Source: Chloroflexota bacterium (GTDB taxonomy: Bacteria; Chloroflexota; Dehalococcoidia; UBA2979). From it: 64,000 bases of DNA. Positions 10,149 through 42,317 of the stretch are shown here, in pieces; the stretch's first letter is position 1, and each line of letters starts with the position of its first letter. The stretch spans positions 50,327 through 114,326 of the forward strand of contig BTUI01000007.1 of assembly GCA_045863195.1 (NCBI GenBank), read 5' to 3'. The notes under the pieces were generated by a model. The model was not told the origin of the DNA. It saw only the letters and a program-made list of their open reading frames with translations, and did no database searches. The position numbers and the translations under genes are program-made.

Positions 10149-11531
10149 GTGGCCGCAGGCCGCTCGTCCGGCTCTGGCTCCTCTGGCGTCATCGGACGCA
10201 CCTTCGCGTCGCTACGCGTGCGGGACTACGCGTGGTTCTCCGCCGGGAACGCGGCCTTCTTCCTCGCCATGCAAATGAACTTCACGCTGCGTGGCTACCT
10301 GGCGTACGAACTGACCGGCGCTGCCTCCGCGCTCGGCATCCTCGCGCTGTCACTCGCGATGCCCATGCTGTTCGCCGGCCCGTTCGGTGGCGTGATCGCG
10401 GACCGCGTGAACAAGCGCACGCTGCTGATCGTCGTGCAGATCGGCGTCGCCGCGAACAACGGCACGATGGCGCTCCTGATCCTCACCGGGGTCGTGGAAT
10501 TCTGGCATCTCGCTGCCGCCGCGATGGTGATGGGGCTGTTCTTCGCGGTCATCACCCCGGCGCGTCAGGCCATGGTGCCGCAACTCGTGCCACAGCAGTT
10601 GATGATGAACGCAATCTCGCTCCAGATGAGCGGCCAGAACCTCACCCGGATCGTGGGCCCGGCGGTGGCCGGTCTGCTGATCGCACCAATGGGCGTGGGC
10701 AACGTCTATCTCGTCACCGTTGCCCTGTTCATCCTGTCCGTGATCACGATGTTCCCGCTGCCGAAGCACGGCATGGTCTCGATCCAGCACGGCCAGCGGC
10801 GCAACGTGGGCGAGGAACTGGTCAGCGGCCTCGCGTTCGTCTGGAAGACGCCGCTCTACCGCATCCTGCTGATCATGGCGCTGGTCATGCCGCTGTTCGC
10901 CTTCCCGGTGAACCAGATCCTGCCGGTGTTCGCGGAAGACGTGTTCGAGCGCGGCCCGACTGCCCTGGGCATCCTCATGTCCGTGTCGGGCGTGGGCGGC
11001 CTCGTCGGCGCGCTCTTCGCCGCCGGCATCTCCGACTACCCGCACAAGGGGTGGCTGCAGATCGTCGGCGCCATCGCCATGCTGCTCTGCTTCATCGCGT
11101 TCGCGGTGACGCCGTCGTTCTACCCGGCGCTCGTGTTCCTCGCGCTCGGCAACATCGGCTCGATGATCTTCCAGGTCACTAACAACGCCGTGATCCAGGC
11201 GCAGGTGCCGGACGAGTATCGCGGTCGCGTGATGGCGGTGCTGATGATGTCGTTCGGCACCATGCCCCTCGGCGTGCTGCCGCTGACCTTCGCCGCGGAC
11301 CGCTGGGGCGCCCCGCTCGCGGTCGTCGCTGCGCAGATCATCGGCCTCGCGGTCGTGCTGCTGACCGTGGTCTTCAGCCCCAGCGTCCGCAACCTGCGCA
11401 TCAGCAACCTGGACGAGGCGGAGCTGTCGCCCGCCCAGGCCGCGAAACTGGTCGCCGAGGGCAAGATCACGCGCGAGGAAGCCGCACGCCTCAGCGGCCG
11501 CGCCGGCGGCACGGCGCGCGCCCCGCACTAG
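10149..11531 (+). CDS. MFS transporter
   Basis: 460 aa with a multi-TM hydrophobic profile. MFS motif-A-like GGVIADRVNKRTLL. AGGAGG SD before the GTG start. Confidence 0.85.
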   Translation: MAAGRSSGSGSSGVIGRTFASLRVRDYAWFSAGNAAFFLAMQMNFTLRGYLAYELTGAASALGILALSLAMPMLFAGPFGGVIADRVNKRTLLIVVQIGVAANNGTMALLILTGVVEFWHLAAAAMVMGLFFAVITPARQAMVPQLVPQQLMMNAISLQMSGQNLTRIVGPAVAGLLIAPMGVGNVYLVTVALFILSVITMFPLPKHGMVSIQHGQRRNVGEELVSGLAFVWKTPLYRILLIMALVMPLFAFPVNQILPVFAEDVFERGPTALGILMSVSGVGGLVGALFAAGISDYPHKGWLQIVGAIAMLLCFIAFAVTPSFYPALVFLALGNIGSMIFQVTNNAVIQAQVPDEYRGRVMAVLMMSFGTMPLGVLPLTFAADRWGAPLAVVAAQIIGLAVVLLTVVFSPSVRNLRISNLDEAELSPAQAAKLVAEGKITREEAARLSGRAGGTARAPH

Positions 11532-12490
11532 CGGACGCGCGGACGCCCCGCCCTCGGGTCCAGCGCGTCGCGCAGGCCGTCGCCCACATACTGCGTGCAG
11601 AGAAACAGCACCCCGAGGATCGCGGTGGGGATCGCCAGCGCCGTCCACTGCACCATCACGAACTGGAAGTGGTCGTTCACCAGCACGCCGAGGCTCGCGC
11701 CCGGCGGGGTCACGCCCAGCCCGATGAACGACAGCGCCGCCTCCGCGAAGATCGCCCGCGGCGCCATGAACGTCGCCTCCACGATCACAGGCCCTGCCGC
11801 GTGCGGCAGCCAGTGGCGGAGCGCGATCCTCGACCGCGACGCGCCGAGGGAGACCGCGGCGAGCGAAAACTCCGTCTCCCGGACCGCCAGCAGCTGGCCG
11901 CGCACGAGCCGCGCCATCGTCGGCCAGCCGGTGAGGCCGATCGCGAGGAACAGCAGCCACACACCGGCATCGAGGCCGAGCAGGTGCTGCTGGCCGAGCA
12001 GCGTCTCGCCCATCGCCGCGCGCAGGAGGATGATCAGCAGCAGGTCTGGCAGCGCGTAGGCCATGTCCGTGCCGCGCATCAGCAGCGCGTCCAGCCACCC
12101 GGGGCCGCTCGCGGCGAGCGCGCCGACGGCGATTCCGATCGTCCCTGCGACGAGGATCGCGAACGCCGCCGCCAGCAACGAGACCCGCAGTCCGGACAGC
12201 GTGCGGCTGTAGATGTCTCGCGCCAGCTGGTCGGTGCCGAAGAGGTGTTCCCCGCTCGGCGGCAGGAACTTCCCCGTCTCCCGGGGCGCCATCGGGTCCA
12301 GCACGCCGCCGGACGGCGCGGCGAGGTACTGGCGCGTCGGGTCGTGCGTCATCAGCAGCGGAGCGAACAGCGCGGCCAGCACGAGCAGGCCGAGGATCGC
12401 CGCGCTGCCGGCCGCCATCCGGTTCGACCGGAACCGCGCCCAGGCGCGCACGCCCGCGCCATCCTCCGCGCGCGGAACGTCGGCGATCAT
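11528..12490 (-). CDS. ABC transporter permease (peptide/nickel type, DppC/OppC-like)
   Basis: Start reset to ATG 12490, which overlaps the stop of the upstream permease (ATGA). The track's 476-aa version carries an Arg/Gly-rich false N-terminal extension. N-terminus ..FRSNRMAAGSAAILGLLVLAALFAPLL.. and the BPD-transporter core (..SLGASRSRIALRHWLPHAAGPVIV..). Confidence 0.85.
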   Translation of the reverse strand: MIADVPRAEDGAGVRAWARFRSNRMAAGSAAILGLLVLAALFAPLLMTHDPTRQYLAAPSGGVLDPMAPRETGKFLPPSGEHLFGTDQLARDIYSRTLSGLRVSLLAAAFAILVAGTIGIAVGALAASGPGWLDALLMRGTDMAYALPDLLLIILLRAAMGETLLGQQHLLGLDAGVWLLFLAIGLTGWPTMARLVRGQLLAVRETEFSLAAVSLGASRSRIALRHWLPHAAGPVIVEATFMAPRAIFAEAALSFIGLGVTPPGASLGVLVNDHFQFVMVQWTALAIPTAILGVLFLCTQYVGDGLRDALDPRAGRPRVR

Positions 12491-13434
12491 CGGAGCGTCA
12501 CCCGCGGGTCGATCAGCGGATACAGCAGGTCGACGACCAGGTTGGCGGCCATGATCACCGCGCCGTAGAACAGCGTGGTGCCCATGATCACCCCGTAGTC
12601 GCGCGCCACCACCGAGGTGATGAACGCGGACCCGATGCCGGGCACCCCGAAGATCGCCTCGATGATGATCGAACCGGTCACCAGGCTCGCGAACACCGGC
12701 CCCAGCACCGTCACCACGGGCACGAGCGCGTTCCGCAGCGCGTGGCGCAGGTACACGCCGCGCCAGCCGAGGCCCTTCGCGCGCGCCGTGCGGATGTAGT
12801 CCTGCTCCAGCACCTCCAGCATCGCCGCGCGCGTGATCCTCGACACGATCGCCATGCCGGGAGCACCGAGCGCGATCGCGGGGAGAATGCCGGCACGCAG
12901 CGACCCGATCCCCGTGCCGAAGCGCGTGCCGGCGAGCACGTCCGTCCAACCGAGCCACACTGAGAAGATCAGGAGCAACACGAACGCCAGCACGAACGCC
13001 GGCACCGCCGCCAGCGCCGTCGCGAGCGCGAGCGCAGCCGCGTCCACGACGCCACCTCGACGCACCGCCGCCAGCACCCCGAGTGGGATGCCGGCCGCGA
13101 CGACGATCGCGAACGACATCAGCCCGAGGATGAGTGACGGGCGCATCTTCGCGGCCATGAGGTTCGTGACGGGCTGACCCTGCTGCGCGAACGAGATGCC
13201 GAGGTCGCCCTGCACCAGGTGGCCGAGGTAGCGGACGAACTGAAGCGGCAACGGGTCATCCAGCCCGTAGTACGCGCGCTGCGCCTCGATCACCGCAGGA
13301 GGGAGCGGGCGATCGACGGAGGCGGCATCGAAGGGCCCGCCGGGGACGCGGTGCATCAGCAGGAAGGTCACAGCCGCCAGCACCAGCAGCGTCGCCGCTG
13401 TCCACGTCAGCCGCCGGGCGAGGTAGCGCGCCAT
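12487..13434 (-). CDS. ABC transporter permease (DppB/OppB-like)
   Basis: N-terminus MARYLARRLTWTAATLLVLAAVTFLLM. Permease core ..DYIRTARAKGLGWRGVYLRHALRNALVPVVT.. Confidence 0.9.
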   Translation of the reverse strand: MARYLARRLTWTAATLLVLAAVTFLLMHRVPGGPFDAASVDRPLPPAVIEAQRAYYGLDDPLPLQFVRYLGHLVQGDLGISFAQQGQPVTNLMAAKMRPSLILGLMSFAIVVAAGIPLGVLAAVRRGGVVDAAALALATALAAVPAFVLAFVLLLIFSVWLGWTDVLAGTRFGTGIGSLRAGILPAIALGAPGMAIVSRITRAAMLEVLEQDYIRTARAKGLGWRGVYLRHALRNALVPVVTVLGPVFASLVTGSIIIEAIFGVPGIGSAFITSVVARDYGVIMGTTLFYGAVIMAANLVVDLLYPLIDPRVTLR

Positions 13435-13493
13435 GGGGAGAGCCTACCCCCGCCGGGCCGTGCGAGACGGCCCGGCGGGGGCGCCCAGTCTGA

Positions 13494-15266
13494 CTATTGC
13501 GCCCGCCCGGAGATGACCACCCGGTCGAAGAAGAGATCCCCGGGGATCTCGCCTTCCATCGAAGACGGCACCAGGCCCGTCACCCACGGCTTCACGAGCG
13601 CGTTGCGGCGGCCGTAGTAGAGCGGCGTGAACGGCGCGTCCGCAATCAGGATGCGCTGCGCGTCCAGGTACTGCTGGATCCGCCGGTCGTTGTCCAGTTC
13701 CTGCTCCGCCGCGTCCAGGAGCGCATCGAACTCCGGGTTGCTGTAGGCGCCGGAGTTGAACGCGCCACCCGCCTCGAAGAGCGGGAGCCAGTTCTGCGGG
13801 TCGGGGTAGTCCGCCCCCCAGCCGCTGATCACCACGGAGTAGTTCCCGGCGGTCCGGTCGGCCACGTAGGTCGCCGTGTCGCGCGTCACCACATTCACCG
13901 TGATGCCCAGGTTGCGCTGCCACTGTTCCTGCAGCCACTGGGTGGTCTGGTTCGCCGTCGTCGTGTCCACCGACAGGATCGTGACGGTCAGCCCGGCACC
14001 GCCGGGATAGCCCGCCTCCGCCAGCAGCCTCCGCGACGCCTCGAGGGCGTCACGGTAGGCGGCGCCGACCTCCGGGTCGTGGCCAGGCATCCCCGGCGGC
14101 ACCCAGCCGTACGCCGGCAGCACCGCGCCCTCGCGCACGATCTCGGCGTACTCCTGGCGGTCGAAGCCGCCCGCGAGCGCCTGTCGCACGTGCACGTCCG
14201 CCAGCATCGGGTCGTTGAGGTTGAAGAACAGCCCCACGGTGCTCAACTGCGCATATGCGATGAACTGCTCGCGCAGCGGGATGTCGTCGCGCACCTGCAC
14301 CAGTTCGGCCGCGCCGAGGGTCACGATGTCCAGTTCGGAGTTCTTGTAGGCGAGGAAGGTCACCGCGTTCTCGCTCACCATCGAGAACTGCACGGACTGC
14401 AGCGTGACCGGGGCGCCGTGCCAGTGCTCGTTCCGCACGAGTTCGACGCGCTCGCCGTGATCCCACGCGGCGAGGCGGAACGGGCCGTTCGAGACGTGGC
14501 TGCCCGCCTCCGTCCAGAGCGCACCGTTCGCGTCGATCAGGTCCTGCCGCACGGGGTAGAGCGGCCACATCGTGGCGAGCTGCAGGAAGACCGGCGTGCG
14601 TGTGGAGAGTTCGAACACGACCGTGCGGTCGTCCGGCGCCGTCACCCGCAGCGCCGGCCCCACGAGGGCCTCCAGCGCCAGCAGTTCCTCGCCGGTCACG
14701 CCCGCACGGCGCGCTGCCCGAACCGCCTGGTTTGCGTCGCCGTCCGGCCCGGGTGCCGCGATCACGCGGTAGAAGTCCGCGTAGTAGGAGGCCGCCCCCG
14801 GCTCGAAGATGCGCTTCGCCGCATCGACGAATGCCTGTGCCGCCAGCGGCGAGCCGTCTGACCACTTCAGCCCCTCGCGGAGCCGGAAGGTGTAGGTCAG
14901 GCCGTCCTCGGAGATGCCACCGTTGGCGACGGTCGGAACCTCCTGTGCCAGGTCGGGCAGCACCTGCAGGTCCGGGCCCACGCGGAGCAGGCCAGAGTAG
15001 ATGTTCTGAAGGATGGTGTTGGAGACGGAGTCCGTTGCGCGCTGCGGGTCGAGCGTGGGCGGCTCGCCCGGCAGGTTCACCCGCAGTGTCTGGTTCGCGT
15101 CCGGCACCGCTGCCGTGGCAGTGGCAGTGGCGGTCGCGTCAAGGCTCGCGGTGGCGGTCGGTGTCGGATCGTCGTCACCGCCCGGACTGCAGGCAGCGAG
15201 GATCAGCGACAGGAAGAACGGCGCGAGCACCAGCCGGCGCATCACACCGCGGATCGGCAGACTCAT
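13494..15266 (-). CDS. ABC transporter substrate-binding lipoprotein, family 5 (peptide/nickel)
   Basis: Lipobox LILAAC followed by a Thr/Ala/Asp linker. SBP_bac_5-like body (..IYSGLLRV.., ..LKWSDGSPL.., ..WGADYPDPQNWL..). Confidence 0.88.
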   Translation of the reverse strand: MSLPIRGVMRRLVLAPFFLSLILAACSPGGDDDPTPTATASLDATATATATAAVPDANQTLRVNLPGEPPTLDPQRATDSVSNTILQNIYSGLLRVGPDLQVLPDLAQEVPTVANGGISEDGLTYTFRLREGLKWSDGSPLAAQAFVDAAKRIFEPGAASYYADFYRVIAAPGPDGDANQAVRAARRAGVTGEELLALEALVGPALRVTAPDDRTVVFELSTRTPVFLQLATMWPLYPVRQDLIDANGALWTEAGSHVSNGPFRLAAWDHGERVELVRNEHWHGAPVTLQSVQFSMVSENAVTFLAYKNSELDIVTLGAAELVQVRDDIPLREQFIAYAQLSTVGLFFNLNDPMLADVHVRQALAGGFDRQEYAEIVREGAVLPAYGWVPPGMPGHDPEVGAAYRDALEASRRLLAEAGYPGGAGLTVTILSVDTTTANQTTQWLQEQWQRNLGITVNVVTRDTATYVADRTAGNYSVVISGWGADYPDPQNWLPLFEAGGAFNSGAYSNPEFDALLDAAEQELDNDRRIQQYLDAQRILIADAPFTPLYYGRRNALVKPWVTGLVPSSMEGEIPGDLFFDRVVISGRAQ

Positions 15267-15410
15267 TGCGGCACCGAGTTTCTGAAGTACCCAACCCCAC
15301 GACGGCGCGCCGCCCAGCGCAAGGCCTCATAGTAGTCACCGTCAGATTGCGGCGTACGAGTTCGGCGCAAGAATTTTCTTCGGATTTGCTGTGTTAGCGT
15401 CGGATGCATC

Positions 15411-16595
15411 GTGCGCTCCCGACCATTCGTCGTCCTCTTCATCGCCGTGTTCGTGGCCACCATGGGCATCTCCATGGTGAGCCCGCTGCTGCCTGTCTAC
15501 GCGGAGGAGTTGGGCGCATCCGGCGTGTGGATCGGCCTGACGTTCTCCTCGTTCGCGATCTCTCAGACCCTGGTCAGCCCGTTCGCCGGCCAGTGGTCGG
15601 ACCGGTACGGGCGCAAGCCGTTCATCATTGCGGGGCTCGGGTTCTACGTGGCCGCCTCCATCGGCTACCTCACGGCGGACACGTTCGTGCAGGTGATGGC
15701 GTTCCGGATGCTCTCCGGCTGCGGCACGAGCCTGATCTTCTCCGTCGCGCGCGCCTACATCGGCGACATGGTGCCCGAGGGGCACGAGGGGCGCTGGTTC
15801 GGCCTGTTCGCGACCGCGGACATCGTCGGCTTCGGGATCGGGCCACTCCTCGCCGGCGCGCTGCGCGAGGCGTTCGGGTTCGACGCCGTGTTCATCGGCA
15901 TGGGCGCGCTGATGTCCGGGTCCGCGCTCGTCGTGTGGCTCTTCCTGCCACCGCACCCGCCGGAGGACCGCGTGAGCCGCCTGGCGCGGCCCGACCTCCG
16001 GTTCGGCGTCGCGCTCCGCGACCGACTGGTCGTCGCGCTGGCGCTGCTGATGGGCCTGACCTCCCTCTCGTTCGGCGCCACGCTCTCCTTCCTCGGCCTG
16101 CGGCTGGACGCCCTCGGGATCGGGCCGCTGCTGATCGGCCTCGCGTTCTCCATCGAAAGCCTCGCGAGCGGGCTGTCGCAGCCGCTCTTCGGCCACCTGG
16201 TGGACCGAATGGACCGTCGCCGCCTCGTCGTGATCGGCCTCGGGATCAGCGGCGGCGCGCTGATCGTGCTCGGGCTGCCGCTGACGTACGGCACGGCGCT
16301 CGCGCTGCTGTTCGTGCTGGGCGTGGGACAGGCGCTGACGCAGGTCACCGCCTCCGCGATGCAGGTGGTGGCTGGCCGTCGCGTGGGCATGGGCACCGTG
16401 ATCGGCATCGGCTCCTCCGGCAACGGCGTCGGCATCGTCGTCGGGGCAGTGGCCGGCGGCGTGTTCGCGGACGCGCTTGGCCTCAGCGCACCGTTCTACG
16501 CCGGTGGCATCGCCCTCTGCCTCGCGATCGTCGTCGTGCTGCTGCTGCTCCGAGGCGTCCCCGTGACGGAAGCGGAACTCCGCGCGGGCGGCTGA
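15411..16595 (+). CDS. MFS transporter
   Basis: 394 aa, ~12 TM segments. Motif A GQWSDRYGRKP. GTG start. Confidence 0.85.
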   Translation: MRSRPFVVLFIAVFVATMGISMVSPLLPVYAEELGASGVWIGLTFSSFAISQTLVSPFAGQWSDRYGRKPFIIAGLGFYVAASIGYLTADTFVQVMAFRMLSGCGTSLIFSVARAYIGDMVPEGHEGRWFGLFATADIVGFGIGPLLAGALREAFGFDAVFIGMGALMSGSALVVWLFLPPHPPEDRVSRLARPDLRFGVALRDRLVVALALLMGLTSLSFGATLSFLGLRLDALGIGPLLIGLAFSIESLASGLSQPLFGHLVDRMDRRRLVVIGLGISGGALIVLGLPLTYGTALALLFVLGVGQALTQVTASAMQVVAGRRVGMGTVIGIGSSGNGVGIVVGAVAGGVFADALGLSAPFYAGGIALCLAIVVVLLLLRGVPVTEAELRAGG

Positions 16596-16629
16596 TCGCC
16601 CCCTCCCGCCGAGGCGTTACGATCCGCCC

Positions 16630-18165
16630 ATGACCGACACCTTCACGATCGCCCTCGAGCCGCTGCCCGGCCGCCCCGTCATCGCCCCCATCGGGACGGG
16701 CGCGCGGGTGCTGCTGGTCTCCACGTACGAACTCGGGCACCAGCCGCTCGGCCTCGCCTGGCCCGCCGCCGCGCTCCGCGCCGCCGGGCACGACGTCCGC
16801 ACGCTGGATGTCGCCGTGGAGCCTCTGGAGGCGGGCGCGTTCCGTGGCGTCGACCTCGTCGCTATCTCGATCCCGATGCACACGGCCGCCCGCCTGGGCA
16901 TGGAGGTCGCCCGCGCGGCACGGAAGATCAACCCGGCCGCCCGCATCGCGTTCTACGGGCTGTACGCCTCGCCGCTGTACGCGCACCTCACCGCCGAGGG
17001 CCTCGGCGACGTCGTCATCGGCGGCGAGTACGAGGACGGCCTGGTGGCGCTGGCTGGCCGGATCGCCGCGGGCGACACGTCCGTCGACGTGGCCGGCGCG
17101 GGCGCCACGCCTTCGCTCGCGCGCCGCCGGCATCCCGTGCCGGACCGCCGCGGGCTGCCCGCGCTCGACCGCTACGCCAGCGTCCGCCGCCGCGACGGGG
17201 AGCATCCCGCCGGCTACGTGGAGGCGACCCGTGGCTGCGCTCACCGCTGCACCCACTGCCCGATCACGCCCGTGTACGGCGGTGCGCTGCGCCTCGTCCC
17301 GGCCGAGACGGTGCTCGCCGACGCGGCCCAGCAGATCGAGGCCGGCGCGCGGCACATCACCTTCGGCGACCCGGACTTCCTCAACGCCGTCCCGCACTCG
17401 ATGGCGATCGTGGAGGAGTTCCACCGCCGCTGGCCGGAGATCACGTACGACGTCACGGTGAAGGTGGAGCACTTCCTGGAGCACCCGGAGGTGTTCCCGC
17501 GGCTGCGCGAGACCGGCTGCCTCTGGGTCACCTCCGCGTTCGAGTCCTGCAACGACCGCACGCTCGGCCTGCTCGAGAAGGGGCACACGCGCGCGGACAT
17601 GGAGGCGGCGCTCCGCATCGCGGACGGCGCGGGGCTTCCGGTGCGTCCCACCTGGGTGGCCTTCACCCCGTGGACCACGCTCGATGACCTTGTGGACATG
17701 GTCGAGTTCGTCGCGGAGCACGGCCTCCAGCGTCACGTCCAGCCGGTGCAGTACACGCTGCGTCTGCTGCTGCCGCCGGGCTCGCCGCTGAACGGCGTGC
17801 TGGAAGCGCAGGGGCTCCTCGGGCCGTTCGATGCGGAGCACCTCACCTACACCTGGGCAAACCCCGACCCCCGCGTGGATACGCTCCAGGCGGAACTCGC
17901 GGCGCTCGTGGAAGCCGCCGCGATCCCCGCGACCGGCGAGGAGTGCGACGAGGACGGTGTCTGCGCCGTCCCCGGCTCGATCGAGGACATCGTCGAGACG
18001 TTCGAGAAGGTGCGGACGGCCGTGTATGCCGCCGCCGAGCGCACGCGCCCGCCTCGGGGACTCGTCCCGCTGCGCTTCGTCCCGTCGCTCACGGAGGCCT
18101 GGTACTGCTGTGCGGAGCCGACCGAGCAGCAACTGCGGCTGACCGAGGTCGCGACCGGCATCTAG
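16630..18165 (+). CDS. B12-binding-domain radical SAM protein with C-terminal CCAEP tail
   Basis: N-terminal cobalamin-binding-like domain (VLLVSTYELGHQPLGLAWPAAALRAAGHDV..). Radical-SAM cluster motif CAHRCTHC (CxxxCxxC). C-terminal ..EAWYCCAEPTEQQL, encoded TGC TGT (Cys-Cys, no TGA). Confidence 0.85.
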   Translation: MTDTFTIALEPLPGRPVIAPIGTGARVLLVSTYELGHQPLGLAWPAAALRAAGHDVRTLDVAVEPLEAGAFRGVDLVAISIPMHTAARLGMEVARAARKINPAARIAFYGLYASPLYAHLTAEGLGDVVIGGEYEDGLVALAGRIAAGDTSVDVAGAGATPSLARRRHPVPDRRGLPALDRYASVRRRDGEHPAGYVEATRGCAHRCTHCPITPVYGGALRLVPAETVLADAAQQIEAGARHITFGDPDFLNAVPHSMAIVEEFHRRWPEITYDVTVKVEHFLEHPEVFPRLRETGCLWVTSAFESCNDRTLGLLEKGHTRADMEAALRIADGAGLPVRPTWVAFTPWTTLDDLVDMVEFVAEHGLQRHVQPVQYTLRLLLPPGSPLNGVLEAQGLLGPFDAEHLTYTWANPDPRVDTLQAELAALVEAAAIPATGEECDEDGVCAVPGSIEDIVETFEKVRTAVYAAAERTRPPRGLVPLRFVPSLTEAWYCCAEPTEQQLRLTEVATGI

Positions 18166-19393: not shown

Positions 19394-20461
19394 CTACGCC
19401 GTGTGGTCCGCCGCGCTCGGCCGGAGCGACGCCCGGCGGCGCTGCACGTCCACCGCCGCCTTCACGGCCGCGGCCGCGAGGCGCGCCTCCGCGAAGGCGG
19501 AGGGGGTCCGGCCAAGCACCAGCGCGTCCGGGGGAGCATCGCCCCGCGCGCGGACCAGCGCCTGGATCTCCTGAACCGCCGCCACCAGCCGCCGGCTCGC
19601 CTCCAGCCCCACGGGACGCGCCTGCCGGTTGTAGCGGTCGAGCGCCTCCACGGCTGAGACCGCCGGGCTCACCTCCCGGAGGATCTCGATGCCTTCCTCA
19701 GCAAGCCGCTCGTGGAACATCGTCAGGTCGCGCCGGTAGCGAAGCGTCCACGCCTCCGCCTCCCCCAGCGCCGCGTCGAAGTCGCGCGGCGCGAGGAAGA
19801 ACCGCACGAGGTCCAGGCGTGGCCGCAGCACCTCGCGCGCCTCGACGAGCGAGCGGTGGGCGCCGGCATCCGGGGCGACCGCCGCGTCCAGGCAGCGCGT
19901 CACGATCTCGAGCGCACGACCGGCGCCGGCGTCACGCAGCCGCTCGGCCAGCACGTCGTGTGCGAAGGCGGCAGCGTCCGGCCAGTGGATCCGGAGGCGG
20001 CGGTCGAACCCGTCGCGCCCCTCCTCCGCAATGTCCCCGAGGAGCCCCGGGCGGTCGCGCAGGAACCCGACGAGCGATTCGCGGGAGTGTGGGCCGGCCT
20101 CGCAGGGTGGATGGGGCGGACACAGCGCCTGGAACCCGGCGGCGATGAACGCCTCCGGCGGATCGCCGGGCGTCCGGAAGTACGGGGAATGCGGCCAGGC
20201 ATGGGCGACCGCGGACGAGACCGCTGCGGCATCCATGGAGGTGTCGGCGATGGCGACCCACGCCGGGAGATGGGCGGGAGGCGCCTCGCCCGGCCGCACG
20301 AGGAGCAGGCGGACATCTGCGAGGATGACGTCCGGAGGGGCGGTCAGCCCCTCGCGCCACTCGGCGGAGGCGTGGATCTCGGCGGCGTAGTACGTGCCGA
20401 AGGGGTCGCGGAAGTACGCGACCCGGGGCGAGGTCGGGGGCCAGGAGAGTACCGGGGGCAC
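19394..20461 (-). CDS. hypothetical protein (~355 aa), no recognisable domain
   Basis: Start reset to GTG 20461 (GGAG 5 nt upstream), because the track version overlaps the preceding HDOD gene. Protein-like sequence (..AYFRDPFGTYYAAEIHASAEWREG.., ..FLRDRPGLLGDIAEEGRDGFDRRLRIHWPD.., ..AWTLRYRRDLTMFHERLAEEGIEILREV..). Confidence 0.6.
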   Translation of the reverse strand: MPPVLSWPPTSPRVAYFRDPFGTYYAAEIHASAEWREGLTAPPDVILADVRLLLVRPGEAPPAHLPAWVAIADTSMDAAAVSSAVAHAWPHSPYFRTPGDPPEAFIAAGFQALCPPHPPCEAGPHSRESLVGFLRDRPGLLGDIAEEGRDGFDRRLRIHWPDAAAFAHDVLAERLRDAGAGRALEIVTRCLDAAVAPDAGAHRSLVEAREVLRPRLDLVRFFLAPRDFDAALGEAEAWTLRYRRDLTMFHERLAEEGIEILREVSPAVSAVEALDRYNRQARPVGLEASRRLVAAVQEIQALVRARGDAPPDALVLGRTPSAFAEARLAAAAVKAAVDVQRRRASLRPSAADHTA

Positions 20462-20504: not shown

Positions 20505-21365
20505 TCAGGAGCCCGCCGTGTGGATGAACACCGCCGCCCGCTGCGACAGGCCGTCCAGCCCACCACCCTGCTCGAGCAGCAAGGCCAGGGGCGAGACGGT
20601 CCATTCAACAGCGGGGGCGGCGAGGGCGGGCTCTTCCAGGCCATCCGTCAGGCCGTGGGCATGTGCGAAGTCGCGCGCCCGGATCACCAGCCCGGCCAGG
20701 CTGTCGCGACTCTCCAGCGCGTCCAGCGGCTGCTGGTGGGTGGCGACGGCCTGCGCCAGGCTCGACGGAAAGTTCCAGCGCCGGGCCAGCGCGCCGCCGA
20801 CCTCTGCGTCCGTGAAGCCGAGGAGGGCACGTTCCGCTTCCGGCAGCGTGATGCCCTCCTGCCGCGCCAGCACCACGCAGCGGCGGAGGTCATCCGGCCG
20901 CGCCTGATCCAGCGCCAGCCGGCCCACGTTGTGGAGGACACCGGCCGTGAACGCCTCGTCGGCGTGGCAGCGGCCGCTCTTCGCCAGCGTCTCCGCGAGC
21001 AGCCCCACGGTCAGCGAGAAGCGCCAGAACGCATCGTGCTGGATGACGCGCCCTCGCGGCATCGTCTCAAGGACGCACGCGGCGAGGGTCGCCGAGCGGA
21101 TGGCGCGGAAGCCCAGCAGCACCACGGCGTCGCGCACGGTGCTGATCCGGCGCGGGAACCCGTAGTACGCGGAGTTCGCGAGGTGGAGGACGGTGGCCGT
21201 GAGTGCGGGGTCGGAGGAGATCGCCTGGGCCAGCTCATGGGCGGAAAAGTGCTCGCTCTCAACGATCGCGAGCACCCGTGCGGCAACCGGCGGGAGTGGC
21301 CGTAGATCGGCGATCTCCCCGACCAGCACATCGAGCGGTGCGTCAATGACGCCTCGCTCCGACAT
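20505..21365 (-). CDS. HDOD domain-containing signalling protein
   Basis: HDOD signature (LPPVAARVLAIVESEHFSAHELAQAISSDPALTATVLHLANSAYYGFPRRISTVRDAVVLLG.., AGVLHNVGRLAL, LGFTDAEVGGALARRWNFP). Start set at ATG 21365; there is no obvious SD, and the TTG at 21458 is an alternative. Confidence 0.8.
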   Translation of the reverse strand: MSERGVIDAPLDVLVGEIADLRPLPPVAARVLAIVESEHFSAHELAQAISSDPALTATVLHLANSAYYGFPRRISTVRDAVVLLGFRAIRSATLAACVLETMPRGRVIQHDAFWRFSLTVGLLAETLAKSGRCHADEAFTAGVLHNVGRLALDQARPDDLRRCVVLARQEGITLPEAERALLGFTDAEVGGALARRWNFPSSLAQAVATHQQPLDALESRDSLAGLVIRARDFAHAHGLTDGLEEPALAAPAVEWTVSPLALLLEQGGGLDGLSQRAAVFIHTAGS

Positions 21366-21472
21366 GGGAGGAAATGACCAGGAAGCCGTACGGGAGGGGT
21401 CCGACGGCTCCCCGGTCGAACACGATCGACGTAAGGCGACGTCGAATCGTTGCTGCAAGTGAGGCTCCTGGG

Positions 21473-21574
21473 CTACCAGGGGAAGATGACTTCAGCGAGG
21501 GCCGACGTGCCGGTCGCGATGAACGCGGCGGCGACGAAGGCGGAGGCGACGGTGGTGGTGATGAAGCGGCGCAT
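21473..21574 (-). CDS. 33-aa signal-peptide-like pro-peptide (MRRFITTTVASAFVAAAFIATGTSALAEVIFPW)
   Basis: ATG 21574, TAG 21473. GGGAG SD 6 nt upstream. 31 of 33 codons end in G/C. Own promoter-like region and an upstream terminator. The track lists only an upstream-extended 66-aa form. Confidence 0.55.
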   Translation of the reverse strand: MRRFITTTVASAFVAAAFIATGTSALAEVIFPW

Positions 21575-21637
21575 GGCGTACTCCCGAGATCGTGTGCCGC
21601 GATGGGAATCGGCGGCCGGTCTGCACTTGACATGCGG

Positions 21638-21672
21638 ACAGTACGGAGCAGCCTCTGACCAACCTCTGACCA
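21638..21672 (-). promoter_or_regulatory. candidate activator-dependent promoter: 2 x TGGTCAGAGG direct repeats at 11-bp period, 8 nt upstream of TACTGT
   Basis: Minus strand reads TGGTCAGAGG-T-TGGTCAGAGG-CTGCTCCG-TACTGT. On the plus strand the repeats are cctctgacca at 21652-21661 and 21663-21672. It lies ~65-100 nt upstream of the mini-ORF ATG. Confidence 0.45.
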
Positions 21673-21677
21673 CGGGC

Positions 21678-21713
21678 TAAAGAAAGCCGTCAGAAGCCCG
21701 ACTTTTCTGACGG
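21678..21713 (-). terminator. rho-independent-type terminator after the STAND/SARP regulator gene
   Basis: 9-bp stem (plus strand ccgtcagaa 21687-21695 / ttctgacgg 21705-21713) with a 9-nt loop. On the minus strand it is followed by CTTTCTTT. It sits 50 nt after the regulator stop. Confidence 0.55.
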
Positions 21714-21762
21714 TTCTGTAGATTTAGCAAGATTTCGAGGGCGAGGGCCCGCAGGCGCGGGG

Positions 21763-24700
21763 TCAGTCGACCGGATCGTCCAGCGCTTCACCGGACAGCA
21801 CCCGGTTGTAGAGCGACCGGACGCGCGCCGAGGGCGTCCCGCCCACCTCGTCCCGCATGGCGTCGTGGAGACGCCGGTACGCCCGCGCGGCCAGGTCCAG
21901 GTTGCCCCGGTGGACGTGCCCCTGCATCACCCGGATGGCGGCGTCCTCGTTCAGGGGGTCCACGGCCAGGACGGACTCCGCCATCCGGATCGCCTCCGCC
22001 GCGTCGCCCCGCCGGAGGGCGGCGGAGGCGAGGGCCACCGTGTTGGAGAGGTACATGTCCTCGTATCTCTGACGGGCGGCCTCCACCCAGTCAGACTCGA
22101 ACCCGGAGGCGAACGACCCCGCGTACAGCTGGATGACCTTCGACACGCCGGAGGCCCACTCCTCGCTCCCGCGTGGGGCCGCCTCTGCCTGCTGCAGCCC
22201 CTTCTCGAACTCGGCGGCGTCGTACCAGATGTCGAAGTCCGGGTTCACCTGGTAGCCACCGCCCGACTGCACCACCACCTGCGGGTGGATCGCCTTTCGC
22301 AGCCGGTACAGCGTGGTGTGGAACTGGCTGTTCAGTTGCTTGGGGCTGACGTCCGGCCAGAGCTCGACGGCGATCTCCTCCTTGCGCAGCGGCCGTCCGC
22401 GGTGCAGGAGGTAGAAGAACAGTTCCTTGCTCCGCTCCGACCGCCACTCCATGTCCGCGATCAGCCGCCCGTCCACGCTCACCCGAGGCGCACCGAACGC
22501 CTCCGCCCGGATCCGGAATGCCGCCGGCAGTTCCGCATCGTGCTCGCCGGCCTCGGACGGGCGGACGCGGCTCGCCAGCGTGCGGAAATAGTCGCCGCCC
22601 ACGCGGCGCGCCGCGGCGTACTCGACGACTTCCAGGTTCTGGCGCGCCTCCGCGAGCAGGAACTGGTCGTAGCCCAGCGCCTCCGTCAGCGCGTACACGC
22701 GCTCTAGATGCTCCATCGCCGGCTGCCGGTGACGGGTGTGGAACAGCGACGAGCCGAGGAGGAGCAGGGCGAGCGCCTGTTCCCGACGCGCGCCGCCGTC
22801 CTCCGCCGCGGCCGCGGCCGCCTCCAGCACCGGGATGGCGTCCTGGTGGGCCTGCTCCGAGCACATCGTCGCGGCCGCGCCGATCCGGAAGCGCGTCTGC
22901 ATCAGCATCGCGCCGGTCTGCTCCGCAGACCGGAGGCCGTGGTCGAGCAGCGCCCGGGCGCGCGAGAACTCGCCGCGCTCCCGGTAGCACATCGCCAGTC
23001 CGTAGGTCGCCGCGAGGATGAGCGCGGGGTCGTCGATCTCCTGCGCCTCGTGGATCGCCACGGTGTAGAGGGTGATCGCGTTGTCGAGCCGCCCGAGGTC
23101 GCGCTCGACGTTGGCGAGGCCCTCCTTGCCGTACGCCTCGTACCGGTGGTGGCCGATGCGGCTGGCGCGCTCCACGACGCCCTCGAACGTGTCGCGGGCG
23201 GTCTCCAGTTCGCCCAGCATGTGCTGGACGTTGCCCATGTTGTTCATGGTGGCGATCTGCGCCTGCGGCTCCGCGAGCATGCGCCAGCGGCGCTGCGCGG
23301 AGGTGTACTCCGCCATTGCCACGGCCAGGTCCCCGGCCAGGTACAGGACGTTGCCCAGCATGTCCCGCGCCTCCGCGGTGCTGTGCTGGTTGCGCTGCTC
23401 CTCGAACCGGAGCGCCGCCTGCTCGATGCGCTCTCGCGCGGCCGGCAACTGCCCGTACCGGGCGAGGGCGACCCCCTCCTCGAAGTCGATCTCCGCGTAG
23501 ACGGGGTGGTCGTCGTCCAGGTGCTCCAGCGCCGCCTGGCGGGCGCGGCGGCAGCCCTCGACGGCCTCGGGGATGCGCCCCATCTCGCGGAACGCGACGC
23601 CGCGATACAGCAGCGTCCGGACGCGCTGCTCCGGCTCCAGCGGGTGCGTCTCGATCCGGTCCAGGCGCGTCAGACACTCCTGCCGGTGGCCGAACTTCGC
23701 CGCGAGGCGTGCGCGCACCAGTCCGAGGTCGATCTCCTGGTCGATGACCTCCTCCGGCAGCCGGTCGATCCACCCAGCCAGCGTGCGCCATTCGCCGCGC
23801 TGGTACAGGGTGTCGCGCGTGTCGTACAGCTCGCGCACGACCTCCGACCAGTCGCCGGCCTCGATCGACAGGTTCACCGCCTCCACCAGCATCCCGCGGC
23901 GGCTGCAGATCGCCGCCGCCTGACGCCGGAGGTCGGTCGCCCGCTGCCGCTGCTCCCGCTCCAGCCGGGCAAGGAGGTGCTCCCGGATCAGCGCGTGCAT
24001 CCGGTACCACTCGCCGTCACCGGCGTCGTCGCCGAGGCGCGTGAGGAAGCGGTTCGTCTGCGCCAGTTCGTGGAGCGCGGGCCCCGCCTGCTCGTTCCGC
24101 GTCAGCGACTGCGCGAACTCCAGGTCGAACGTGGGCAGGACGGAGCAGGCGGTCAGCACCTCCATCTGAAGCGGCGTCAGCCGTTCCAGCACCTCCTGGT
24201 CAATGAACTGGCCGAGGATGAACTCGAACTCGCCGTGCATCCCTCGGTCGGGGTCGTAATGGTCGACCATCACGGCCAGCGCCGCGGCCCAGCCGTCCGC
24301 CCGGCGGATCAACTCGGCCCGGTGGTCGGGCCCCACCTTCGACTGGTCGAGGAACCGCGCCGCCTCCTCCGCCGTGAAGATGAGGTCGCGCGCCCCCAGC
24401 GAGTAGGCGCGCCGCTGCGCCGTGAGCCGCGCGAGCGACCCGAGCGATGGCCACGTCCGCGACAGGATCATCAGCCGCATGTTCATCGGCACCGAGCGCA
24501 CGAGCGTGTCGACGACGGCGAGCGCCTCCGGCGAGTCGTCCAGGAAGTGCAGGTCGTCCAGGACAAGGACGAAGAGGTCGTCCACTTCCTGCTGGATGGC
24601 GGCCGACAGTTCGGAGACCAGTGCCCCGGCGCCAGCCGGCACGCCGCCGGCCTCCAACCGCTCCATGAATTCGGCAAGCGCCTCCGGGAACGCCTGCCGC

Positions 24701-25002
24701 ACGGCACCGGCCAGGTCCGCCACCAGCGCGAGCGGGTCCGCGTCCTGCGCATCGAGGGAAAGCCACGCCACCTTCAGCGCGGCGGCACTGGCCCAGTCCA
24801 CGGCCAGCGTGGACTTGCCGTAGCCAGCGGGCGCCGTCAGGAGCGTGACGTCGTACTCGAGCGCCTCATCGAGGAGCGCGTGGAGGCGGTCGCGTCGGAC
24901 GGTGTCCGCGCGGCGGCGCGGCGGCACCAGTTTGGGCAGGAACTGCCGTCGTGGTCGCCGCGGTGGGGGCAGGTCAGGGCGGCTGACCGCAGGCCACGTC
25001 AC
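21763..25002 (-). CDS. large STAND-type transcriptional regulator: P-loop NTPase + TPR/SUPR sensor + C-terminal SARP module (OmpR-type wHTH + BTAD)
   Basis: MalT-like N-terminus (..LPKLVPPRRRADTVRRDRLHALLDEA..LLTAPAGYGKSTLAV.. Walker A; LFVLVLDDLHFL Walker B). A long TPR-like region follows. C-terminus: ..RVSVDGRLIADMEWRSERSKELFFYLLHRGRPLRKEEIAVELWP..TTLYRLRKAI (wHTH), then ..YDAAEFEKGL..LYAGSFASGFESDWVEAARQRYEDMYL..AIRMAESVLAVDPLNEDAAIRVMQGHVHRGNLDLAARAYRRLHDAMRDEVGGTPS (BTAD). Start set at GTG 25002. The track's 1291-aa form runs antisense through the neighbouring gene. Confidence 0.85.
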   Translation of the reverse strand: MTWPAVSRPDLPPPRRPRRQFLPKLVPPRRRADTVRRDRLHALLDEALEYDVTLLTAPAGYGKSTLAVDWASAAALKVAWLSLDAQDADPLALVADLAGAVRQAFPEALAEFMERLEAGGVPAGAGALVSELSAAIQQEVDDLFVLVLDDLHFLDDSPEALAVVDTLVRSVPMNMRLMILSRTWPSLGSLARLTAQRRAYSLGARDLIFTAEEAARFLDQSKVGPDHRAELIRRADGWAAALAVMVDHYDPDRGMHGEFEFILGQFIDQEVLERLTPLQMEVLTACSVLPTFDLEFAQSLTRNEQAGPALHELAQTNRFLTRLGDDAGDGEWYRMHALIREHLLARLEREQRQRATDLRRQAAAICSRRGMLVEAVNLSIEAGDWSEVVRELYDTRDTLYQRGEWRTLAGWIDRLPEEVIDQEIDLGLVRARLAAKFGHRQECLTRLDRIETHPLEPEQRVRTLLYRGVAFREMGRIPEAVEGCRRARQAALEHLDDDHPVYAEIDFEEGVALARYGQLPAARERIEQAALRFEEQRNQHSTAEARDMLGNVLYLAGDLAVAMAEYTSAQRRWRMLAEPQAQIATMNNMGNVQHMLGELETARDTFEGVVERASRIGHHRYEAYGKEGLANVERDLGRLDNAITLYTVAIHEAQEIDDPALILAATYGLAMCYRERGEFSRARALLDHGLRSAEQTGAMLMQTRFRIGAAATMCSEQAHQDAIPVLEAAAAAAEDGGARREQALALLLLGSSLFHTRHRQPAMEHLERVYALTEALGYDQFLLAEARQNLEVVEYAAARRVGGDYFRTLASRVRPSEAGEHDAELPAAFRIRAEAFGAPRVSVDGRLIADMEWRSERSKELFFYLLHRGRPLRKEEIAVELWPDVSPKQLNSQFHTTLYRLRKAIHPQVVVQSGGGYQVNPDFDIWYDAAEFEKGLQQAEAAPRGSEEWASGVSKVIQLYAGSFASGFESDWVEAARQRYEDMYLSNTVALASAALRRGDAAEAIRMAESVLAVDPLNEDAAIRVMQGHVHRGNLDLAARAYRRLHDAMRDEVGGTPSARVRSLYNRVLSGEALDDPVD

Positions 25003-25096: not shown

Positions 25097-25735
25097 ATGG
25101 CCTTCGCCGTGGACGACGAACTCGCCTTTCTCCGCACGTACGAGTCGACCACGCTCACCAAGCCACAGGTCGTCGCGGACAACGTCCTCACCGGCATCTT
25201 CCTCGCGGACTCCCGGCACCGGGCAGCCCTCGCCGCGCTGCTCCTGCAGGAGGCGGTCGAGGCGGCGCGACGGCTGGCGGCGGTGTGGGACGCACTGGCG
25301 CACCGGTCGCGCTCGGTCGCGGAGGCGCTGGCCGGGCCGCTCCCCAACGCCACGGTGTGGGAGGCGCTCGCCGGCGCCGTCACCGGCCTCGAGGACCCGC
25401 GCGAGGTGCTGCGCCTGATCCAGGTGGACGAGAGCGCGCTGGAGAGCGCGGAGGAGATGCTGGAGTTCGCCGGGCTGGACTGGTTCAGCGCCGCGATCCG
25501 CACGTTCGAGGCGGGCCCGCCGGCCCTCACGCTGGAGCCGGGCGAGCCCGGAAGCCCCGGCGTGGTCGCGTTGCGGGGGGTGGGCACGGATGGCTCGCCG
25601 CGCGAGACGCGGGTGCGGCTGGAGGACGACCGCATCATCGCCCTGGGCGACGCGACCGGTGACTTCGTGACGTGGTCGCGGGACTTCCTCGGCGCCTACA
25701 TGGACGCTCGCGAGGCGGCGGCGCAGAGGCGATAG
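25097..25735 (+). CDS. hypothetical acidic protein (212 aa)
   Basis: AGAAGGA SD 7 nt upstream of the ATG. Protein-like, Glu/Leu/Ala-rich, without Arg bias (MAFAVDDELAFLRTYESTTLTKPQVVADNVLTGIFLADS...). Divergent from the regulator. No family recognised. Confidence 0.65.
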   Translation: MAFAVDDELAFLRTYESTTLTKPQVVADNVLTGIFLADSRHRAALAALLLQEAVEAARRLAAVWDALAHRSRSVAEALAGPLPNATVWEALAGAVTGLEDPREVLRLIQVDESALESAEEMLEFAGLDWFSAAIRTFEAGPPALTLEPGEPGSPGVVALRGVGTDGSPRETRVRLEDDRIIALGDATGDFVTWSRDFLGAYMDAREAAAQRR

Positions 25736-42119: not shown

Positions 42120-42317
42120 ATGGCCGACACCATCACGCTGTGGCTGTTTCTCGCGGGCCTGGCCTTGTTCGTGACCGGCGACCTGCTCTGGCTGCTGCGC
42201 AACACATTTAACCGCCCGATGCAGATGCGCGTCACCGGCGCGCTCATCGGCGCGGGGATCGTCCTCCTCACGATCGGCCTGGCGCTGTTCGCCGTCCGCG
42301 GCGGGGGCGGCGGCTGA
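42120..42317 (+). CDS. small membrane protein (65 aa, 2 predicted TM)
   Basis: MADTITLWLFLAGLALFVTGDLLWLL..VTGALIGAGIVLLTIGLALFAV. Its stop lies 1 nt before the DinB-family start. Confidence 0.55.
   Translation: MADTITLWLFLAGLALFVTGDLLWLLRNTFNRPMQMRVTGALIGAGIVLLTIGLALFAVRGGGGG

Follow-up and report, generated by a model that had tools for sequence, protein, structure and literature searches.

The 64,000-nucleotide stretch of DNA analyzed here (the window), positions 50,327 to 114,326 of contig BTUI01000007.1 from a Chloroflexota bacterium of the class Dehalococcoidia (assembly GCA_045863195.1), carries a 33-codon gene directly 3' of the gene for a large transcriptional regulator that joins a STAND ATPase and a TPR sensor to a SARP-type DNA-binding module. 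The mini-gene is under coding constraint, stays linked to the regulator where the neighboring operon is inverted, is preceded by a promoter of SARP-type architecture, and encodes a product in which a signal-peptide-like N-terminal part is followed by a tail of fixed six-residue length. The locus suggests a peptide signaling loop, of which Chloroflexota have no known example: the hexapeptide would be cleaved off, exported and fed back on the regulator, a complete loop that we advance tentatively and place somewhat short of an even chance. A preliminary description of the open reading frame (ORF), made from the letters of the window, had read it as the precursor of an exported oligopeptide pheromone. 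Its account of the gene, of the layout of the product and of the link to the regulator stands, whereas a Tat-like export signal, a role as leader peptide for the downstream HDOD gene and membership in the RRNPP group of Bacillota systems (Rap-Phr, NprR-NprX, PlcR-PapR and AimR-AimP) do not.

A constrained 33-codon gene and its product

As read from the sequence and the ORF list, the gene occupies positions 21473–21574 of the minus strand, stop codon included, with its ATG at 21574–21572 and its TAG at 21475–21473, and its product is MRRFITTTVASAFVAAAFIATGTSALAEVIFPW. A GGGAG Shine-Dalgarno sequence (21581–21585, minus strand) can be read 6 nt before the ATG, with a GGAG core likewise placed in the relatives, and 31 of the 33 codons end in G or C, the only A/T-ending ones being GCT and GAA; the GC fraction at third codon positions is 0.94, compared with 0.94 for the regulator gene and 0.88 for the HDOD gene. 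Start, stop, ribosome-binding site and codon usage are all as first described. A 66-residue form of the ORF starting at GTG 21673 was rejected: its start codon falls at the 5' boundary of the promoter repeat (see the next section) and lies upstream of the −10 box, and the longer version is therefore an artifact of ORF extension.

The same ORF is found in the same place in about 20 Dehalococcoidia/Chloroflexota contigs, as 15 distinct sequences. These loci (given L numbers here) were gathered by tblastn of the peptide together with inspection of small ORFs, by a metagenome scan, and from contigs encoding homologs of the HDOD protein or of unk355, the product of the gene that follows HDOD; the metagenome scan, made with the C-terminus of the regulator, yielded only 2 of them. 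All 15 variants are 32–33 codons long and are preceded at 6–9 nt by a GGAG-type Shine-Dalgarno sequence; the start codon is ATG in every variant except one. Columns that vary number 16, 11 and 24 at the first, second and third codon positions (order 3 > 1 > 2), pairwise dN/dS values range from 0 to 0.76, and the peptide genes of L001 and L082 differ by 5 synonymous and 0 nonsynonymous changes. Scanning for layout alone returns about 3 signal-like mini-ORFs in the 64-kb window, so that the layout is weak evidence in itself and it is conservation that makes this ORF credible. Judged by its recurrence and by this coding-type substitution pattern, the 33-codon ORF is a real gene under coding constraint and not a chance ORF, and it looks translated, as had been argued earlier; the traits that had been singled out for comparison among relatives, namely ORF length, small residues at −3 and −1 and the six-residue C-terminus, are indeed kept beside the regulator. 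Family models and databases barely register the peptide: it has no match in the Pfam or NCBIfam family models, an exhaustive phmmer search with the 33-mer against 1.84 billion representatives returned 0 matches, and a doubled-peptide profile found only 2 clusters among 5.8 billion, both labeled "hypothetical protein" and both identical to loci in our set.

In the window's 33-mer the n-region is MRR, the h-region runs from F4 to A20 and the c-region from T21 to A27, ending in A-L-A, so that residues 1–27 resemble a signal peptide and residues 28–33 form the hexapeptide EVIFPW. The n-h-c layout and the −3/−1 rule were scored by inspection across the 15 variants. Their N-termini are basic (mostly MRR, otherwise MTR, MNR or MDK), and the hydrophobic stretch that follows spans 17–20 residues rich in Ala, Thr and Ser. 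The c-region is polar and turn-prone: 9 of 15 variants place a Gly or Pro between −7 and −4, the remainder Ser or Thr; the −3 residue is A, G, S, T or V, and the −1 residue is A or G, being Ala in 14 of 15. Six residues follow the A-x-A-type motif in 15 of 15, in the pattern x-x-I-x-[P/G]-hydrophobic, in which all variants share Ile at +3 and nearly all have P/G at +5 (EVIFPW, EVIYPW, EVIWPW, EMILPW, AMILPW, GVIWPW, GMIWGL, VFIWGM, EEIGGV, EEIDGV and EEIGGL). The basic n-region, hydrophobic core, small-residue motif and short tail noted at the outset are thus kept in every variant; to the eye all 15 carry the basic n-region, h-region and small −3/−1 residues of substrates for Sec export and signal peptidase I (SPase I), and cleavage may follow. 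A bona fide exported lipoprotein encoded in the same window begins MRRLVLAPFFLSLILAAC, with an n-region like the peptide's MRR.

Two other ways of reading the N-terminal part were tried and rejected. The sequence RRF had been called Tat-like, but L085, L088, L089 and L020 have TR, NR or DK in place of RR, and what follows RR departs from the S/T-R-R-x-F-L-K motif; the Tat reading is dropped because the twin arginine is unconserved. A force-sensing arrest peptide of the SecM/MifM type was set aside as well, since a 33-mer would still lie within the ribosome tunnel at termination.

Linkage to a STAND-SARP regulator and a SARP-type promoter

The regulator gene (21763–25002, minus strand, GTG start) was assigned through Pfam, PDB phmmer and NCBIfam searches. 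Its 1079-residue product consists of a MalT-like STAND nucleoside triphosphatase (NTPase; residues ~24–451), a TPR sensor (~455–800) and a C-terminal SARP module made up of a winged helix-turn-helix (wHTH; ~830–927) and a BTAD domain (928–1069). Pfam matches are AAA_16, TPR_12 (1.1e-20), TPR_MalT (1.8e-15) and BTAD (5.2e-18); phmmer against the PDB matches residues 24–414 to MalT (8bob, 6.5e-30) and residues 830–1072 to the SARP part of AfsR (8hvr, 2.6e-9), with EmbR (2fez) also found; and NCBIfam likewise returns MalT and AfsR, the MalT model NF003420 covering residues 24–451 at 8e-64, below its equivalog cut-off. No RRNPP receptor is among the regulator's PDB matches, the others of which (E values of 1e-5 to 4e-4) are generic TPR proteins such as Pins/GPSM2 and designed TPRs. 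Orthologs are present in all related loci, with WHD_MalT found among them, and the wHTH is the most conserved domain, at 85% mean pairwise identity versus ~69% for the other domains. In L089 (1115–4345, minus strand) the regulator is split into two ORFs of 424 and 617 aa, by a frameshift or an assembly error; the peptide gene beside it and both repeat promoters of that locus are intact.

Past the regulator's stop codon stands a terminator-like hairpin (CGTCAGAA...TTCTGACG, then GCTTTCTTT; about 21681–21712, minus strand), whose core (21702–21689) was located by a terminator scan and whose wider stem is visible in the letters themselves. It is followed by a tandem 11-nt direct repeat, TGGTCAGAGGT (21672–21662) and TGGTCAGAGGC (21661–21651, both minus strand), a predicted SARP-dimer site that replaces the −35 element, and 7 nt after the 3' repeat by the −10-like hexamer TACTGT (21638–21643, minus strand). 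The preliminary description had placed the ORF between a terminator and a promoter-like element of its own. Both flanks are there, the hairpin lying 5' of the ORF and the promoter being of a conserved activator type, not a generic sigma-70 one; a scan for generic sigma-70 promoters found none. An Rfam search of 21200–21900 gave nothing near any gathering score, and the fold z-score of the peptide gene's 5' untranslated region, 0.11, indicates no structure.

Two copies of the repeat unit TGGyvAGArGT, then 7–8 nt and TAnnnT, stand upstream of the peptide gene in every locus, and TAnnnT keeps a fixed distance from the repeats in 18 unique sites; the promoter consensus reads AcAATcTGGyvAGArGTTGGtvAgAG, N6–8, TAnnTTC. 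Within the 64-kb window the tandem repeat is observed once, against 0.02 occurrences expected. In SARP promoters, direct repeats are spaced by 11 or 22 bp and 8 bp separate the 3' one from the −10 box; on the 22-bp afs box AfsR sits as a dimer of side-by-side molecules, and afsS has CACTGT as its −10 box (PMC10936776). The peptide promoter conforms to the SARP rule both in its 11-bp repeat spacing and in the distance from the 3' repeat to the −10 box. From the conserved wHTH, the conserved repeats and the SARP-type design we infer, strongly, that the regulator activates this promoter, the peptide gene being its predicted direct target through binding to the repeats.

The peptide gene lies directly 3' of the regulator in every locus that has the peptide, including three (L085, L088 and L089) in which the HDOD operon is inverted. 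In these inverted loci the regulator is divergent from HDOD and the peptide gene is still on the regulator's strand, where it forms a monocistronic unit that has a repeat promoter to itself and is closed by a canonical terminator of hairpin and T7 tract; a second repeat promoter stands upstream of HDOD-unk355. L002 is likewise of the inverted type, with a repeat promoter (2578–2640, plus strand) that drives HDOD directly without a mini-ORF, its contig ending before the 3' end of the regulator. Read together, these arrangements indicate that the peptide gene is transcribed as a unit of its own, linked to the regulator rather than to HDOD and belonging to the same regulon as HDOD-unk355. They also tie the ORF genetically to the TPR-containing regulator, the arrangement to be expected of a receptor and its propeptide.

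In the colinear arrangement of the window, the gene for the HDOD-domain protein (286 aa, ATG 21365; 20505–21365, minus strand; Pfam HDOD 2.2e-56, supported by synteny) starts 107 nt 3' of the peptide ORF and is co-transcribed with the peptide gene or lies downstream of it. Its best matches are in Dehalococcoidia metagenome-assembled genomes, and the DNA of the window is high in GC. HDOD is a signaling or adaptor domain, and the HDOD protein SadB acts as an adaptor (PMC12075610). The interval between the two genes holds a conserved, covarying RNA hairpin (21376–21417, minus strand; fold z = −4.65) and a smaller one (21419–21454, minus strand). A hairpin between peptide gene and HDOD is present in all colinear loci, with compensatory changes in 8 of 21 pairs. 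The hairpin at 21376–21417 has no canonical U-tail, whereas its counterpart in the inverted loci has the T7 tail; its probable role is that of a leaky terminator or attenuator, by which more transcript would be made of the peptide gene than of HDOD. Leaky terminators occur after precursor genes in bacteriocin operons. The spacer was also considered as an N-terminal extension of HDOD, a reading that was rejected: L043 has a break in the frame, and the pattern of conservation is that of a covarying RNA hairpin.

After HDOD always comes unk355 (355 aa; 19394–20461, minus strand), whose product has an invariant CPPHPxC motif. Only 24 homologs make up its family, all from Dehalococcoidia/Chloroflexota; Pfam, NCBIfam and PDB sequence searches gave no informative match, and neither did a Foldseek search of the PDB with its AlphaFold2 model (mean predicted local distance difference test score 90.8).

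A candidate feedback loop and competing explanations

In light of these results, we propose that the regulator would bind the tandem 11-nt repeats as a side-by-side dimer and drive both the peptide gene and HDOD-unk355, the latter being reached in the window by read-through of the leaky hairpin and, in the rearranged relatives, transcribed from the second copy of the repeat promoter. The 33-mer would insert N-in/C-out via its signal-peptide-like N-terminus, and SPase I would cut after A-L-A27 and free EVIFPW outside the cell, where the hexapeptide would accumulate before being taken up, plausibly by the neighboring Opp-type importer. Once inside, it would bind the TPR sensor and relieve STAND auto-inhibition, giving positive feedback in the manner of quorum-sensing autoinduction. 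STAND regulators depend on an inducer acting on their sensor domain (PMC10936776). It is important to note that we infer only weakly, from sequence, the export, cleavage and uptake of the hexapeptide and its binding to the TPR domain. That the locus is the first encoded peptide-pheromone cassette outside Bacillota, in which an SPase-released hexapeptide induces a MalT-type STAND ATPase with SARP output, is a broader claim that we regard as doubtful.

A candidate re-import route is encoded nearby. The window carries an Opp/Dpp-type importer cluster (11528–15266, minus strand), identified through Pfam as an SBP_bac_5 lipoprotein with OppB-like and OppC-like permeases, whose membership of the system is tentative. 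Orthologous SBP_bac_5-OppB-OppC clusters lie a few kb downstream in the window and in L016, L043, L094 and L095, and Opp permease genes adjoin the peptide gene in the three inverted loci. Linkage of an Opp-type importer within a few kb in both arrangements is suggestive and favors the loop.

Several points weigh against the proposed loop. Export and cleavage were judged by inspection of the sequence, and the hydrophobicity of the peptide is also compatible with a transmembrane helix. In a domain-wise comparison the TPR domain of the regulator diverges no faster than its other domains, and no pherotype-like signature is seen. The importer genes of the inverted loci are only 45–52% identical to the window's and may be paralogs, the linkage in the colinear loci may reflect general conservation of synteny, and in L083 no Opp genes occur within 5 kb. 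We know of no precedent for a STAND ligand in the form of a hexapeptide with tails as unlike as EVIFPW and EEIGGV. AfsS, the closest analog in layout, is an output and cofactor and not an exported signal (PMC10832544); by analogy, the peptide could likewise be a mere output.

The explanation that competes best with a secreted signal is that the 33-mer is an uncleaved single-pass membrane protein, inserted N-in/C-out with a six-residue external tail, which would be an output of the regulon with no feedback on the regulator and might, for example, modulate a transporter or sensor or show its free hydrophobic C-terminus to an extracytoplasmic PDZ-type protease. We consider this possible, if rather unlikely. 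KD19 values of 1.6–2.1 among the variants reach the usual transmembrane threshold, many bacterial proteins of 30 aa are membrane regulators, and the peptide shows every sign of being under the regulator's control, like AfsS, with nothing marking it as an input. The un-weighted Hessa sum for the best 19-mer, which ranges from −0.4 to +2.7 kcal/mol, cuts both ways: it is negative in three variants, but most are Ala/Thr-rich with a positive insertion free energy. An anchor would also leave unaccounted for the small −3/−1 residues, the polar, turn-prone c-region and the tail kept in all 15 variants, as well as the tight linkage to a cytoplasmic regulator; its helix would moreover be the most variable part of the molecule (entropy 1.64 versus 1.34 for the tail), and no conserved helical face is seen in the hydrophobic stretch among the 15 variants. 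The profile, only marginally hydrophobic, appears closer to that of cleavable Sec-type signals in monoderm bacteria than to that of stable anchors.

An improbable variant of the feedback scheme is that the peptide, whether full-length, tethered or processed inside, acts as an AfsS-like cofactor that binds the regulator in the producing cell and enhances its DNA binding without export. The layout is that of afsR-afsS, with a small, SARP-box-activated downstream gene whose product binds AfsR (PMC10832544, PMC10936776), but in sequence the 33-mer is unlike AfsS, which is a soluble protein of 63–87 aa built of repeats; being hydrophobic with a basic N-terminus, the 33-mer would go to the membrane, and its A-x-A motif and tail would have no explanation.

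We think it quite improbable that the gene encodes the precursor of a ribosomally synthesized and post-translationally modified peptide (RiPP), with a C-terminal core modified before export, for instance by unk355 or by a nearby radical SAM enzyme of the B12-dependent kind. The gene for a B12-binding radical SAM protein does lie 3 kb away and recurs near the locus in L001, L043, L081 and L085, a leaky hairpin after the precursor gene is typical of RiPP operons, and unk355 has its invariant Cys/His motif. The radical SAM gene, however, is on the opposite strand without a repeat promoter and is not near the locus in L016, L083, L094 and L095, RiPP leaders are normally not signal-peptide-like, and unk355 has no recognizable enzyme fold. 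Finally, the earlier idea of a leader peptide, an upstream ORF whose translation controls HDOD expression, draws on its position 107 nt ahead of HDOD with structured RNA between, but the peptide gene of the inverted loci is monocistronic, terminated and points away from an HDOD gene with its own promoter, L002 has promoter and HDOD without such an ORF, and the amino acid layout is conserved as in a protein and not an attenuator; the inverted arrangement therefore eliminates this reading, to which we leave a negligible probability.

Related systems and neighboring genes

By analogy, the closest layout to that of the locus is the AfsR-AfsS pair of Streptomyces, in which AfsR activates afsS via the afs box and AfsS binds AfsR, feeding back on it (PMC10936776, PMC10832544). 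Both comprise a large STAND regulator with NOD, TPR and SARP parts, a small gene directly 3', and a small-gene promoter with two 11-bp direct repeats near a weak −10 box. They differ in domain order (NOD-TPR-SARP here, with a MalT-like NOD, versus SARP-NOD-TPR in AfsR), in phylum (Chloroflexota versus Actinomycetota) and in the small product, which here is a 33-residue signal-like pre-peptide without repeats and without similarity to AfsS. The likeness to MalT/GutR STAND activators lies in the order NOD-arm-sensor-DNA-binding domain, in the homologous NTPase and in an inducer-dependent logic; unlike those proteins, the regulator has a SARP output (wHTH and BTAD) instead of a LuxR-type helix-turn-helix, and the known inducers there are sugars or polyols, not peptides.

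As in RRNPP systems, a small propeptide gene adjoins and lies downstream of the gene for a cytoplasmic TPR receptor, the N-terminus looks like a Sec signal, the putative active part is the C-terminal 5–8 residues, an Opp-type importer is nearby, and the receptor probably activates the propeptide gene. Published traits of RRNPP systems are a propeptide of 10–100 aa, a Sec/SPI signal or SHP profile, a receptor of about 250–500 aa homologous to Rap, Rgg, NprR, PlcR, PrgX or AimR, TPRs, and adjacency of the two genes (PMC10075063). Three of these five (small propeptide, TPR receptor and adjacency) are found here. As for secretion, the n-h-c layout and the −3/−1 rule are seen by eye in 15 of 15 variants, with marginal hydrophobicity. 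The receptor departs from the family in both size and descent, being a STAND ATPase of 1079 aa homologous to MalT and AfsR and not to RRNPP receptors, so that the resemblance to Phr, PapR and NprX noted in the preliminary description does not amount to membership. Further differences are that SPase cleavage alone would yield the final peptide, there being no pro-region, that the phylum is not Bacillota, and that the system is known here from genes. The locus is thus not an RRNPP member and yet may work like one. The Rgg-SHP and ComR-XIP systems of streptococci, with their short hydrophobic pheromones, share precursors of 17–35 aa with a basic N-terminus, Opp re-import and mature pheromones formed by the hydrophobic or aromatic C-terminal 7–9 residues, often with an acidic residue first (see also PMC10075063). 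SHPs, unlike the 33-mer, lack A-x-A, are cut by Eep and exported by PptAB, and act on Rgg-type receptors with helix-turn-helix and TPR parts.

Cell-cell signaling by peptides that act on cytoplasmic receptors is considered peculiar to Bacillota (PMC10075063), and no inducer is known for AfsR or other STAND regulators with a TPR sensor (PMC10936776); in targeted literature searches, neither a peptide signal nor such a locus turned up for Chloroflexota. Were the loop true, peptide quorum sensing would extend to Chloroflexota, including uncultured Dehalococcoidia, a natural class of ligands for bacterial NLR-like transcription factors would have been identified, and genes of this sort would prove to escape automated annotation. 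The locus is a compact candidate for experiment, with a 33-codon gene, a defined hexapeptide, a 22-bp operator and a regulator that can be expressed heterologously. Should the peptide prove to be no more than an output, the regulon of peptide, HDOD protein and new-fold CPPHPxC protein would still constitute an uncharacterized signaling module of a widespread uncultured group.

Other genes around the locus were noted in passing. The Opp/Dpp cluster has no adjoining ATPase genes, and beside it is an MFS_3 transporter gene (10149–11531, plus strand). A 409-aa ORF without a Pfam match, followed by the B12-binding radical SAM gene, occupies 15404–18165 (plus strand), and the pair recurs near the locus in the four relatives named above for the radical SAM gene but not in some others. 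Divergent from the regulator lies a 212-aa ORF without a family match (25097–25735, plus strand), the position of which is kept in the colinear loci L016, L017, L043, L083, L086, L094 and L095. The layout scan of the window also picked out a mini-ORF with a transmembrane-like layout, MQMRVTGALIGAGIVLLTIGLALFAVRGGGGG, at 42219–42317 on the plus strand.

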